A DNA stretch of 64,000 nt from an uncultured virus (IMG/VR IMGVR_UViG_2721755569_000006). Its lineage: Duplodnaviria; Heunggongvirae; Uroviricota; Caudoviricetes. The notes beneath the pieces were generated by a model. It made no database searches and was not told the origin of the DNA. It saw nothing but the letters and a program-made list of their open reading frames with translations. Where the stretch lies: IMG/VR virus record IMGVR_UViG_2721755569_000006. One strand, given 5' to 3'. Below are positions 31,882-34,198 of the stretch, piece after piece (the stretch's first letter is position 1; each line of letters starts with the position of its first letter). The translations under genes and the position numbers were made by a program.

Positions 31882-31912
31882 GCTTGGCTTCTGTGCAGCA
31901 CAGCGCGTTCAT
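31882..31912 (+). promoter_or_regulatory. Conserved promoter-like motif, copy 2
   Basis: GCTTGGCTT-ctgtgcagc-ACAGCGCGTTCAT. Confidence 0.75.
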
Positions 31913-31948
31913 GTGCCCATCAACACAACACCTCAACCGGAGCAAACG

Positions 31949-32209
31949 ATGAGCGACACCCTGACCCGAAACGATGTGGTCGAAGAGCTGACCGAAATCC
32001 AGCATCAGATGCTCGAACTGATCGAGAACGCGCGCGGCCTGCTGAAAGCAGGCGGATTCAGCAGCGCACTGGATCGCGCCGAGGACTACTGGATTGCGCA
32101 CCTCACGATGGCGATCTCCGACGACCACGGCTATCTCGGCAGATCGGGATGCACCCTGCTGGACACCATCGAGGAAATCGAGAGCGGCGATGACGAAGAG
32201 AAAGACTGA
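31949..32209 (+). CDS. Small acidic hypothetical protein (86 aa)
   Basis: GGAG RBS; ATG 36 nt after the motif; Asp/Glu-rich. Confidence 0.7.
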   Translation: MSDTLTRNDVVEELTEIQHQMLELIENARGLLKAGGFSSALDRAEDYWIAHLTMAISDDHGYLGRSGCTLLDTIEEIESGDDEEKD

Positions 32210-32249
32210 CAGCTGGGGGCGGGACCACCCGCCCTCTCCAACGAAAAGC

Positions 32250-32280
32250 GCTTGGCTTCTTCCCCGCACAGCGCGTTCAT
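32250..32280 (+). promoter_or_regulatory. Conserved promoter-like motif, copy 3
   Basis: GCTTGGCTT-cttccccgc-ACAGCGCGTTCAT. Confidence 0.75.
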
Positions 32281-32315
32281 CACACCACGTTCAAACCACC
32301 TCGAAGGAGCAACAC

Positions 32316-32822
32316 ATGACCACGCAACAACTGACCCCGGCACAGCACGCGATCCTCGTCTACGCCATCCAGCACACCGGCGGCAAGATCGAATGGTTCC
32401 CCGACAACATCAAGGGCGGCGCGCGCAAGAAGGTTGTCGACGGCCTCGCCAAGCGCGCCCTTATCGCGGCTGCGGGTACCGAATGGCTTGTCTCAGCCCA
32501 GGGCTACGGCGCGCTGCGCCTCGACGCACCGCAGCCGGACGAACCCGCCGCCGATGCAGAAGCACAGCGCAAGGACGCACGAAAGGCGCCGCGCACGCGC
32601 GAGAACAGCAAACAAGCCCAGGTGATCGCGATGCTGCGTCACCCCGAAGGCGCAACGATCAGCGAGATCTGCAAGGCGACCGGCTGGCAAGCCCACACCG
32701 TGCGCGGCGCGTTCGCCGGCACCTTCAAGAAGCGGCTCGGCCTGACCATCGTCTCCGAGAAGTCGGCCGGCGGCGAACGCGTCTATCGGATCGAAGCGAA
32801 CGATGGCGTGCAGGCCGACTAG
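32316..32822 (+). CDS. DUF3489-like winged-helix protein
   Basis: SKQAQVIAMLRHPEGATI.EI...TGWQAHTVRG; AAGGAG RBS. Confidence 0.82.
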   Translation: MTTQQLTPAQHAILVYAIQHTGGKIEWFPDNIKGGARKKVVDGLAKRALIAAAGTEWLVSAQGYGALRLDAPQPDEPAADAEAQRKDARKAPRTRENSKQAQVIAMLRHPEGATISEICKATGWQAHTVRGAFAGTFKKRLGLTIVSEKSAGGERVYRIEANDGVQAD

Positions 32823-32885
32823 TCGGCCTGATGTCGCGCGGGCCCGACTGCGATGTCAGCGGTCCCGCGTGATGCCGCAAACAAC

Positions 32886-32916
32886 GCTTGGCTTGCACCC
32901 CCAACAGCGCGTTCAT
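32886..32916 (+). promoter_or_regulatory. Conserved promoter-like motif, copy 4
   Basis: GCTTGGCTT-gcaccccca-ACAGCGCGTTCAT. Confidence 0.75.
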
Positions 32917-32951
32917 CACGTCACGATCAAACCATCTCAAAGGAGCAACGC

Positions 32952-33458
32952 ATGATCACGAAACCACTCACTCCAGCACAACGCGCGATCCTGACCCGTG
33001 CGATCAAAGACTCCAACGGCCGACTGGACTGGTTCCCGGAGACCGTCAAAGGTGGTGCACGCCTGTTCGCGCTCAATGGCCTCGCCAATCGCACCTTGAT
33101 TGCCAAGTCCGGCACCGACTGGCTGGTCACGCCCGCAGGGTACCGAGTGATCGAAATGCTCGAACTCGTCACGTCGCAGGCCGCTGCCCCCGCCTCCGAG
33201 GCCGAACCGTTCCGGGCGATTACGCGCAAACCGCAGCGTATGCGCGAGGACACCAAGCTAGCCCACATGGTTGAGCTGATGCGCCGGCCCGGAGGCGCCA
33301 CGATGCAGGAAATGTGTGAAGCAACCGGCTGGCAGCCGAATACCATCATCGCGACCGTTTGTGGCCCGCTCAAGAAGCAGCACGGCTTCAAAATCATCTC
33401 GGTCCGCCGCTACTCCATCGAATCCGAGTGCACCGAGCAAGCCGACCAGTCCACTTGA
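32952..33458 (+). CDS. Second DUF3489-like paralogue
   Basis: Shares LTPAQ..IL, WFP...KGGAR and ATGWQ with 32316-32822. Confidence 0.8.
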   Translation: MITKPLTPAQRAILTRAIKDSNGRLDWFPETVKGGARLFALNGLANRTLIAKSGTDWLVTPAGYRVIEMLELVTSQAAAPASEAEPFRAITRKPQRMREDTKLAHMVELMRRPGGATMQEMCEATGWQPNTIIATVCGPLKKQHGFKIISVRRYSIESECTEQADQST

Positions 33459-33512
33459 TGTCGCACGGGGCCGCCTGCGCGAGCAGCGGTCCCGCATGAA
33501 GCTGGGGACAGC

Positions 33513-33543
33513 GCTTGGCTTGTGGCGAGAACAGCGCGTTCAT
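33513..33543 (+). promoter_or_regulatory. Conserved promoter-like motif, copy 5
   Basis: GCTTGGCTT-gtggcgaga-ACAGCGCGTTCAT. Confidence 0.75.
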
Positions 33544-33585
33544 GTCGTTGTCGTGATTGACGACGCCAACTTCAAGGAGAACGCC

Positions 33586-33936
33586 ATGAGCAACACCATC
33601 AAACGCAACCCCTGCACTGTGGTCATCGGCGACAAGATCATCGAAACCGAAAAGCTGCATAAGCGCCTGCCCTTCGCCCGCAAGCCGGCTGATCTGAGCG
33701 AGGTGCGCGGCAAGGAATACGTCGAGGTCTACGTCACCGAGACCAAGGAACTCACCACCGCTGAATTTGACGACTTCGCGAGCGGTCTGCTGGTGTCCCG
33801 CGACTGGCTGCGCGGCAAGGGTGGCGGCAGGCTCGGCAGCTACCTCTGCATCGAGGTCACCGCGCCCGTCCGCCCCACCCTTTATGTCAATCCGGAGGGT
33901 AGCGACTACGCCCGGTACGTGGCCCGCGTCGACTGA
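33586..33936 (+). CDS. Hypothetical phage protein (116 aa)
   Basis: AAGGAG RBS; C-terminal VNPEGSDYARYV. Confidence 0.75.
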   Translation: MSNTIKRNPCTVVIGDKIIETEKLHKRLPFARKPADLSEVRGKEYVEVYVTETKELTTAEFDDFASGLLVSRDWLRGKGGGRLGSYLCIEVTAPVRPTLYVNPEGSDYARYVARVD

Positions 33937-33966
33937 TCGCAACTCACGGAGAAGAAGCCAGGAACA

Positions 33967-33997
33967 GCTTGGCTTCTTCTTCGAACAGCGCGTTCAT
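33967..33997 (+). promoter_or_regulatory. Conserved promoter-like motif, copy 6
   Basis: GCTTGGCTT-cttcttcga-ACAGCGCGTTCAT. Confidence 0.75.
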
Positions 33998-34033
33998 ACC
34001 GGTGGCGCAACGACATCAACCAAGGACACCAAC

Positions 34034-34198
34034 ATGGACATCACCACCGCCAACTACAACGCTTTCGTCACCGGGCTCACCGCCCTCACGCGCAAATACG
34101 GCGTTGCGATCCGCTCGTTCGGCGGCGCCTTCCGCGACGTCGTCTACGTCGCCGATATCATCAGCGGGGACCTGTACGCCGAACTTCCCGAGTCCTGA
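34034..34198 (+). CDS. Small hypothetical protein (54 aa)
   Basis: AAGGA RBS; ATG 36 nt after the motif. Confidence 0.6.
   Translation: MDITTANYNAFVTGLTALTRKYGVAIRSFGGAFRDVVYVADIISGDLYAELPES

Follow-up and report, generated by a model that had tools for sequence, protein, structure and literature searches.

A promoter-shaped 31-bp repeat that heads probably exchangeable one-gene cassettes in AcaML1-like prophages and serine-recombinase islands

In the T4-type phages phi1 and RB49, promoter-early stem-loop (PeSL) modules flank small non-essential genes. Each module comprises a stop codon, a promoter, a stem-loop, a Shine-Dalgarno (SD) sequence and a start codon, the stem-loop can overlap the -35 element, and recombination between copies shuffles single genes within a plastic region (Arbiol et al. 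2010, PMC2839356). In the leading region of the IncN plasmid pKM101, CUP repeats bound by ArdK overlap the promoters of establishment and anti-restriction genes; a copy also lies at the regulator's own gene, which yields an element-encoded, autoregulated regulon (PMC6289460). Here we analyzed 64,000 nucleotides of DNA from an uncultured virus of the Caudoviricetes (IMG/VR record IMGVR_UViG_2721755569_000006; this whole stretch is called the window), in which five small genes between positions 31,882 and 34,198 each follow a copy of one 31-bp motif. The window is an AcaML1-like temperate prophage, and we consider it probable, with moderate confidence, that the motif is a promoter-type module that doubles as the junction between cassettes.

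The motif units resemble PeSL modules in that they repeat between small genes, in that homology breakpoints fall at the motif, and in the hairpins seen behind three of the five window genes and at the left box of 22% of motif instances. In contrast, the PeSL promoters follow the sigma70 consensus, are very strong and belong to lytic T4-type phages, whereas the motif has a non-consensus -10 and a frozen spacer, resides in temperate phages and integrative islands, heads the integrase operon as well, and is letter-identical across hosts of several classes. Like CUP, the motif is a repeat upstream of several genes of one element; unlike the CUP sites, which serve a known repressor as operators on a conjugative plasmid, it is a promoter-shaped repeat on a phage or island. 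By analogy, the motif unit would work like the PeSL and CUP/ArdK repeats, yet it appears to be a member of neither, since its promoter is non-consensus, its element is temperate and no regulator has been assigned to it.

The nearest named and annotated phage is AcaML1 of Acidithiobacillus (JX507079), which is matched by 23 of the 53 window proteins. AcaML1 and the window have a common gene order, namely DUF2924/serine recombinase, helix-turn-helix (HTH) early operon, D5-type primase, two ParB-methylases, the reverse-strand small-gene array, gpA terminase and lysozyme, while the tail module and the cargo differ. Three exact array copies and a copy with two mismatches before the recombinase operon were found in the first 50 kb of AcaML1, the part that was scanned; the AcaML1 record has no repeats or promoters annotated.

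A pattern scan of the window for GCTTGGCTT-N9-ACAGCGCGTTCAT found precisely the seven sites reported in the initial annotation of this DNA (Table 1), six of them exact and one, the minus-strand copy at 61779-61809, with a single mismatch (G1 to C). Shuffling the window 100 times with its dinucleotides preserved never produced a motif match. In a looser scan the real copies had 0 to 1 mismatch and the next best site in the 64 kb had 5, and the motif class is thus sharply bounded. All seven copies are intergenic and oriented toward the next open reading frame (ORF), and they sit at three far-apart places in the phage, that is, in the array, behind the lysis module and at the recombinase operon. 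The distance from motif end to start codon is 36, 35, 35, 42 and 36 nt for the five array copies, in agreement with the 35 to 42 nt given initially, and it is 30 nt for the ORF at 297-1 and 69 nt for DUF2924.

The two boxes of the motif have the layout of a promoter. TTGGCT and GTTCAT are 17 bp apart in all seven window copies, and TTGGCT matches the -35 consensus TTGACA at four of six positions. We compiled 344 non-redundant instances, in which the 17-bp spacing of exact matches is set by the search pattern itself (variants keep 17 bp too). Here the two bases before TTGGCTT, which the search did not fix, were G (92%) and C (100%), the base after TTGGCTT was C in 78%, and the last two spacer bases were G in 79% and A in 86%. 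The 9-nt spacer, which had been described as varying freely, therefore does vary, but not at these three positions to the same degree. After CAT, position +6 was a pyrimidine in 98% of instances, +7 a purine in 84%, +8 a pyrimidine in 94% and +9 a C in 73%, and this pyrimidine-purine (Y-R) step, 6 to 7 nt past the hexamer, lies where a sigma70-type holoenzyme would start. The leader after the motif is A/C-rich. An SD-led start within 110 nt defined 384 unique downstream ORFs (there was none for 35 instances), and the motif-to-start distance was 33 to 36 nt in 256 of the 384.

We propose a portable, sigma70-family type of promoter whose core, approximately positions -37 to -7, would be the 31-mer, with TTGGCT as the -35 element, a 17-bp spacer, GTTCAT as the -10 element and transcription from the purine that lies 7 nt past it. 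Between this purine and the start codon, 33 to 36 nt past the motif, would lie a short leader rich in A and C and an SD sequence. One such unit would serve each one-gene cassette of the array and one the 98-aa gene, and a deviating unit would serve the DUF2924/recombinase operon. The enzyme would most likely be the host RNA polymerase, because islands whose only genes in common with the phage are DUF2924 and the recombinase have kept the motif, and because neither a sigma factor nor a polymerase of phage origin turned up. A second, element-borne protein would activate or repress these promoters; this is suggested by the poor -10, with T at -11, in combination with the frozen GC before the -35 and the frozen GAA and GCGCG in the spacer, bases that a plain weak promoter does not explain. 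Promoter activity, start site, polymerase, and both the existence and the identity of a regulator are deduced here from sequence.

The way in which the motif drifts speaks for this reading. The drift set consisted of 80 viral loci encoding DUF2924 relatives, and the upstream sequence was examined in 77, being too short in the other three. It carried the motif with at most 3 mismatches at 30 loci, with 4 to 7 mismatches at 26 and with at least 8 at 21. None of these 77 recombinase-operon copies matched all 22 fixed bases; they form a deviating subclass, which weakens the initial proposal that the recombinase simply belongs to the same regulon. Drifted left boxes read CTTGACTT, CTCGACTT, CTTGATAA or CTTGCAAA, all closer to the sigma70 -35 consensus, and drifted right ends read GCGTCAAT, GCGTACAT, GCGTGAAT or GGGTGTAT at a constant spacing to the left box. 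At the level of hexamers, relatives had TTGACT, TTGATA or TTGCAA on the left and G(T/A)nnAT on the right, with the 17-bp spacing kept. A degenerate pattern gave 59 sites in ten DUF2924 phages versus 1 for the reversed control. Arrays retained the canonical GAACAGCGCGTTCAT even in phages with a drifted recombinase promoter. Variant right boxes included GGAAGCGTTCAT and GAGCGTCAAT, the second of them in both copies of one phage; GAAGGAAGCGTTCAT is the array box of two distant phages (G030 and G031), and one 99-kb phage has the hexamers GAGTAT, GATGAT and GACGAT, with A at -11. Such drift is that of a -35/-10 pair, not of an RNA motif or a recombination site. Together with the Y-R step, the drift to TTGACT and G(T/A)nnAT bears out the sigma70-like geometry with a poor -10 that had been noted at the start.

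Other known signals were rejected. A sigma54 promoter has GG at -24 and GC at -12, exactly 10 bp apart; the motif contains TGGC, but where the GC should then stand it has G (79%) and A (86%), and C occurs there in only 11%. Host sigma32, sigmaE, sigma28 and extracytoplasmic function (ECF) 'CGT' promoters misfit in their spacings, as judged by eye against their consensus sequences, and a LexA-type box did not fit either. Antisense coding (reverse strand ATG AAC GCG CTG ...) was dismissed because third codon positions do not vary and the ATG is missing from variants.

A number of observations weigh against a sigma70-type promoter with a dedicated reader. GTTCAT lacks the A at -11 and has T instead, a sigma70 scan of 31700-34400 found 0 promoters, and many recombinase-type leaders have a pyrimidine at +7. 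Of the candidate regulators, only DUF2924, together with the recombinase, is universal, and within a phage the variants of the recombinase promoter show no co-variation with the array copies. The sole RNA-seq run that matches the stretch (X1) contains 81% of its sampled words, with contigs over 26000-44675 at similar depth and a drop in depth past 44675; its contigs break at the motif (one, for example, spans 31886-32297) and are uninformative on start, strand and level. Runs X4 to X6 held only scraps of the stretch, and, among the papers listed in a literature search, there was no start-site map for a Ralstonia strain that carries the array. Two further points come from RNA folding. Of the 44 unique DUF2924 leaders, 33 are predicted to pair from nt 1 or 2 past the motif onward, which fits an RNA that already contains those bases and clashes with a start at +7, and RNAalifold gave no consensus structure for 27 short leaders.

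These leaders are also an argument for a reading at the level of RNA, which we consider distinctly unlikely: the motif would be an RNA motif or a 5'-end mark, made either by a start of a non-sigma70 kind at its last bases or by a nuclease cut of read-through RNA behind GUUCAU, and in both cases every gene would be given a defined leader. The leader pairing closes on the SD region, and its stem arms co-vary (GCGAAC/GTTCGC, TCAAAC/GTTTGA and ACAAC/GTTGT); the very tight distance to the start codon is likewise consistent with this reading. A holoenzyme-read DNA, however, is what would be expected to drift toward the -35 consensus and toward G(T/A)nnAT at 17 bp. The two boxes have no mutual complementarity and are not reverse complements of each other, and Rfam gave no match in the window. 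No polymerase or nuclease gene is common to all the elements, and on the strand of the first array copy there is upstream room for a promoter only inside the terminase gene.

The leader stems may instead serve read-through RNAs, for example from the late operon of a circular phage, which would thus be kept untranslatable; otherwise the start would lie at the motif end. Fold-back inhibition of read-through transcripts is said to have been described for IS10 by Davis, Simons and Kleckner in 1985. Like in IS10, the 5' arm of the SD-masking stem in the DUF2924 leaders straddles the putative start site, and only RNA coming from upstream could form the stem. The support is weak, as cutting the RNA at +7 raised the median SD-unpaired probability only from 0.31 to 0.46; fold-back inhibition of read-through recombinase transcripts by the DUF2924 leaders is thus modestly supported. 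In the window-type leader, the final CAT of the motif can also pair with the start codon.

A purely regulatory role was weighed as well, in which the motif would not be a promoter but an operator or 'stoperator', an oriented site where an immunity repressor blocks transcription through the accessory region. Like the 13-bp stoperators of cluster A mycobacteriophages, the motif is an asymmetric, strictly conserved sequence that lies between genes and points in the direction of transcription. In most array copies, moreover, the right box is an imperfect palindrome, GAAC-N5-GTTC. We nevertheless regard this as very unlikely. An operator needs neither the bipartite 17-bp geometry nor the -35-like drift nor the Y-R step, the first array copy and the recombinase copy would need a promoter of their own where nothing else promoter-like is nearby, and the palindrome is lost in the variant arrays of G030 and G031 that carry GAAGGAAGCGTTCAT.

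We then return to the second part of the proposal, that the promoter-type module also serves as a cassette junction. The content of the array differs phage by phage: the window has, in order, the acidic 86-aa gene, two DUF3489 genes, the 116-aa gene and the 54-aa gene, the Nitrospira prophage has DUF6900, DUF3489 and a 122-aa gene, and other phages have further mixes drawn from 43 families behind the motif. DUF6900 follows the motif in 72 of the 384 unique ORFs (L223:2564-2767 and L245:1446-2432 are examples among the cargo loci), and DUF932, a domain known from the accessory regions of plasmids and of integrative and conjugative elements, is rare cargo. From a stop codon to the next motif there are 22 to 32 nt in tightly packed arrays and 30 to 63 nt in the window.

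At the nucleotide level, we compared the window array with those of six relatives, and homology breakpoints lay at motif edges in all six comparisons. Homology with the related arrays begins 0 to 5 nt before a motif or ends at the motif's last base. In G010 and G012, for instance, the blocks end at 31912, the last base of the motif, and restart at 32246-32248, 2 to 4 nt before the next copy; G010 precisely misses the acidic cassette, and G012 has a DUF6900 cassette in the same place. One-gene indels are bounded by motifs, and a single unit in relatives aligns with each of the two DUF3489 units of the window, beginning where the motif begins. These results agree with the earlier suggestion that cassettes are gained and lost at the repeats, as breakpoints coincide with the motif and phages differ from one another by entire one-gene units. 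Given that the same 31 bp flank every unit, recombination between identical flanks would add, delete, duplicate and exchange cassettes, and such shuffling is what the sequence comparisons suggest.

Hairpins accompany several of the units. They had been reported between units and were found behind array genes 1 to 3, GC-rich and without U tracts, and none was found behind genes 4 and 5. Those behind the two DUF3489 paralogues share GCGGTCCCGC, as first described, which indicates that the whole unit was duplicated. Also, in 74 of 342 instances (22%, versus 3% of shuffled ones) the left box forms the 3' arm of a hairpin by pairing with an upstream complement of 7 nt or more; typically, GAAGCCAAGC and GCTTGGCTTC pair across a 7-nt loop.

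Cassette boundaries at the motif, with a large serine recombinase always nearby, might also be taken to mean that the motif is a site or scar of that recombinase, at which cassettes would be inserted one by one in an integron-like manner. This we hold to be extremely improbable. Such a site is expected to be an imperfect dyad of about 40 to 50 bp, whereas the motif has no dyad symmetry about a central dinucleotide; its orientation and its distance to the start codon are fixed, it heads the recombinase operon itself, and its copies lie at three distant places in the phage. Breakpoints, furthermore, occur at either edge of the 31-mer, as they would in homologous exchange.

The distribution of the motif was scanned with an exact pattern of 20 fixed bases. 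The pattern occurred in at least 161 viral stretches of IMG/VR and in at least 143 bacterial stretches of a collection with one genome per species. Among the matches listed, the hosts, as named in the record titles, were mostly Betaproteobacteria (Burkholderiales, Rhodocyclales and Thiobacillus), with Gammaproteobacteria (Lysobacterales, Plasticicumulans, a Pseudomonas and Halotalea), some Alphaproteobacteria and the complete genome of Candidatus Nitrospira defluvii. A few motif-bearing bins are labelled Chloroflexota, Gemmatimonas, Prosthecobacter or Bifidobacterium, and these may be binning errors. The motif is widespread among relatives, in which the array content differs from phage to phage. 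It is not a common host repeat, which had been named as an alternative at the outset: in five whole genomes it was confined to prophages or islands, and none of the five had a match to the reversed control pattern. Homologous prophages were also seen in Caldimonas manganoxidans, Thiomonas bhubaneswarensis and Cupriavidus cauae. All 5 copies in the complete 4.3-Mb genome of Nitrospira defluvii lie in one AcaML1-like prophage at about 58.8 to 109.2 kb, and the megaplasmid of Ralstonia pseudosolanacearum GMI1000 has the same array, with five copies at no more than 4 mismatches. The 12-mer and 13-mer of the right box were not found in the literature searched, supplements not covered, and DUF3489 is mentioned there by one paper and DUF2924 by three.

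What might read the motif was examined among the genes of these elements. In 28 related viral records, Sigma70_r2 matched in none and r4_2 exceeded its cut-off in none; nor did the window proteins include a sigma factor, although a very divergent one could escape these profiles. DUF3489 is the gene that most often follows the motif (111 of the 384 unique ORFs) and is present in 15 of 17 and in 9 of 10 viral records. Its structure model shows two winged-helix domains with a disordered linker (pLDDT 76), and the Foldseek matches, to winged-helix proteins, were weak (best E 0.008). A PDB profile search with DUF3489 gave nothing meaningful and the protein atlas gave only DUF3489 clusters; an hhalign comparison with DUF2924 gave a probability of 0.3, that is, the two are unrelated. 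As a necessary reader, DUF3489 was rejected. It is missing from the 99% complete G027, although nine motif matches occur in this phage and six of these are exactly the canonical 30-mer; the Luteibacter and Plasticicumulans genomes also keep the motif but lack DUF3489. With no sigma factor in the 28 viral records and DUF3489 missing from some motif-bearing elements, the notion of a phage-controlled regulon, part of the original interpretation, was not borne out by the data at hand. The pair of overlapping minus-strand ORFs at 47720-49977 (428 and 324 aa, no Pfam match, the first matching phrog_37634) fared no better as a common reader, since neither AcaML1 nor the other motif-bearing elements compared have a counterpart.

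DUF2924 and the recombinase are the sole gene pair common to every clear-ended element examined, these being the window, AcaML1, the Nitrospira prophage and the Luteibacter, Plasticicumulans and Benzoatithermus islands. G026, G027 and G032 were picked via DUF2924 relatives, and the presence of DUF2924 there carries no weight. Of five viral records without DUF2924 that were checked, four carry no integrase of either type and are probably trimmed, and the fifth carries tyrosine integrases at one end. The DUF2924 model (pLDDT 81) has a C-terminal domain weakly like the MPND DNA-binding domain (Foldseek E 0.12, probability 0.96 to 0.99), and one DUF2924 relative has a sub-threshold Pfam RAMA match. 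From the model, DUF2924 is a candidate reader, no more.

Such a role would refine the promoter reading. DUF2924 would be the specific reader of a private promoter or operator and bind the frozen non-consensus bases, with its own operon autoregulated via a weaker variant site and the accessory cassettes co-regulated. Its constant company with the recombinase in all clear-ended elements, and the fact that records lacking it mostly lack an integrase too, favor this idea, as does the resemblance to MPND and RAMA. The fold match, however, is weak, the array boxes stay canonical even where the promoter of DUF2924 itself has drifted (G024, G025, G027, G028 and G033), and universality is drawn from about ten elements; we take the idea to be a possibility, though an unlikely one. 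It is doubtful, too, that host polymerase and DUF2924 together define a new class of promoter that couples integrase expression to swappable accessory cassettes. If they do, one portable circuit would operate unchanged in Alpha-, Beta- and Gammaproteobacteria and in Nitrospira, with cassettes that are possibly counter-defence genes. It is also conceivable that the site senses the methylation state set by the phage's two ParB-methylases.

Taken as a whole, the initial annotation was supported in the sigma70-like geometry and in cassette gain and loss, and was weakened or left without support in phage control, a single regulon and a DNA-mimic or anti-defence role for the acidic protein. For the last, nothing beyond the charge of the protein was found in Pfam, PHROGs, PADLOC, the isoelectric point (pI) or the protein atlas, the atlas giving nothing above 0.81 for the 86-aa protein. 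PADLOC, PHROGs and Pfam likewise assigned no function to the 116-aa, 54-aa and 98-aa proteins. The two DUF3489 proteins and DUF2924 named initially were recovered with Pfam, which also identified the recombinase as a large serine recombinase.

Table 1. Coordinates of motif copies, cassette genes, hairpins and recombinase-operon features in the window
Feature	Position	Strand	Remarks
Motif copy 1, exact	31882..31912	+	First of the array; start of the divergent small-terminase gene 30 bp away
Motif copy 2, exact	32250..32280	+	
Motif copy 3, exact	32886..32916	+	
Motif copy 4, exact	33513..33543	+	
Motif copy 5, exact	33967..33997	+	Left box pairs with GAAGAAGCCA immediately upstream
Motif copy, exact, behind the lysozyme gene	328..358	-	Heads ORF 297-1
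Motif copy, recombinase type	61779..61809	-	C at position 1, CC before ACAG
Cassette gene 1, acidic 86-aa protein, no family assigned	31949..32209	+	Protein family of 6, median pI 4.26
GC-rich hairpin behind gene 1	32215..32236	+	No U tract; -19.6 kcal/mol, z -2.4
Cassette gene 2, DUF3489 protein	32316..32822	+	Model with two winged-helix domains and a disordered linker
Hairpin behind gene 2	32833..32874	+	Includes GCGGTCCCGC; -32.3 kcal/mol, z -2.3
Cassette gene 3, DUF3489 paralogue	32952..33458	+	45% identity to gene 2
Hairpin behind gene 3	33466..33494	+	Includes GCGGTCCCGC, paralogous to gene-2 hairpin; -30.4 kcal/mol, z -1.6
Cassette gene 4, 116-aa protein	33586..33936	+	phrog_21303 (function unknown); protein family of 28
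Cassette gene 5, 54-aa acidic protein	34034..34198	+	Homologue of AcaML1 Gp27
98-aa protein	1..297	-	Family of 20, recurrent behind the motif
Structured 69-nt leader of the DUF2924 operon	61710..61778	-	First bases pair with the SD region
DUF2924 protein	61212..61709	-	Helical N-terminal and beta-rich C-terminal domain
Large serine recombinase	59833..61215	-	Pfam

The prophage setting of these features was established with Pfam and PHROGs. On the minus strand, the window encodes a lysozyme, gpA-type large and small terminase subunits, two ParB-domain DNA methylases, a DUF6362 protein, a D5-type primase, an AAA_24 protein and an HTH_17 protein, with DUF2924 and the large serine recombinase at the right end. 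The array is on the plus strand, between the small-terminase and ParB-methylase genes, and packs five units into 2.3 kb. An IMG/VR provirus record has 81% of the window's sampled words in common, along with six of the motif copies. The pairing of the 98-aa family with the motif is also present in a Luteibacter genome.

Next to the array, a HepT-like RNase gene (Pfam E 1.8e-15) and an upstream gene for a 109-aa partner end the row at 34247-34953 (plus strand). The partner has a weak PADLOC match to PDC-S09 and no motif stands in front of the pair, which resembles a toxin-antitoxin or defence pair that was inserted where the cassette row ends. The two tandem ParB-N-domain DNA methyltransferases (N6_N4_Mtase) adjoin the array at 34936-37763 (minus strand), and their pairing is kept in AcaML1 and in the Nitrospira prophage. 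At about 44680-44455 (minus strand), a promoter-like TTGACT-17-GATATG site lies about 330 nt upstream of the HTH_17 early gene, with a strong hairpin and a T run about 150 nt beyond it; read by eye, the arrangement could represent a small RNA, or else an attenuated leader for the early operon. The region at 45054-47551, of low GC content (about 0.49 to 0.53) and on the plus strand, opposite to the phage genes, encodes a 554-aa ORC/Cdc6-like AAA ATPase with a zinc ribbon and a helix-hairpin-helix (HhH) motif, followed by a 278-aa protein without a family; PADLOC found no match there, and the region is possibly defence cargo. Toward the right end, a fragment of an IS4/5-type transposase (DUF4096) lies within the element at 58625-59041 (minus strand), and a 390-aa DUF746/zinc-ribbon protein is encoded at 62641-63816 (minus strand), immediately beyond the recombinase end. 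In a Plasticicumulans genome, at about 7000-17400 of locus L316 (G005:C12), the motif, DUF2924 and recombinase module stands at the edge of an island beside TOTE-type genes (AEP primase plus helicase) and McrBC, and no other window gene is found there. This island is an integrative defence island that has only the integration module in common with the phage.

At least 20 fixed bases are letter-identical across hundreds of phages and islands whose hosts belong to several classes, and the motif is among the most strictly conserved non-coding elements to be expected in temperate phages. To judge from its sequence, it poses a puzzle, as a site shaped like a promoter would break the -11 rule and still function in hosts that differ widely; should it have a dedicated reader, the two together would make a compact, host-independent expression switch. 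The motif also marks a large, almost unstudied family of AcaML1-like phages and related serine-recombinase islands, and it offers a direct route to a list of their accessory cassettes, which are natural candidates for functions in establishment or counter-defence.

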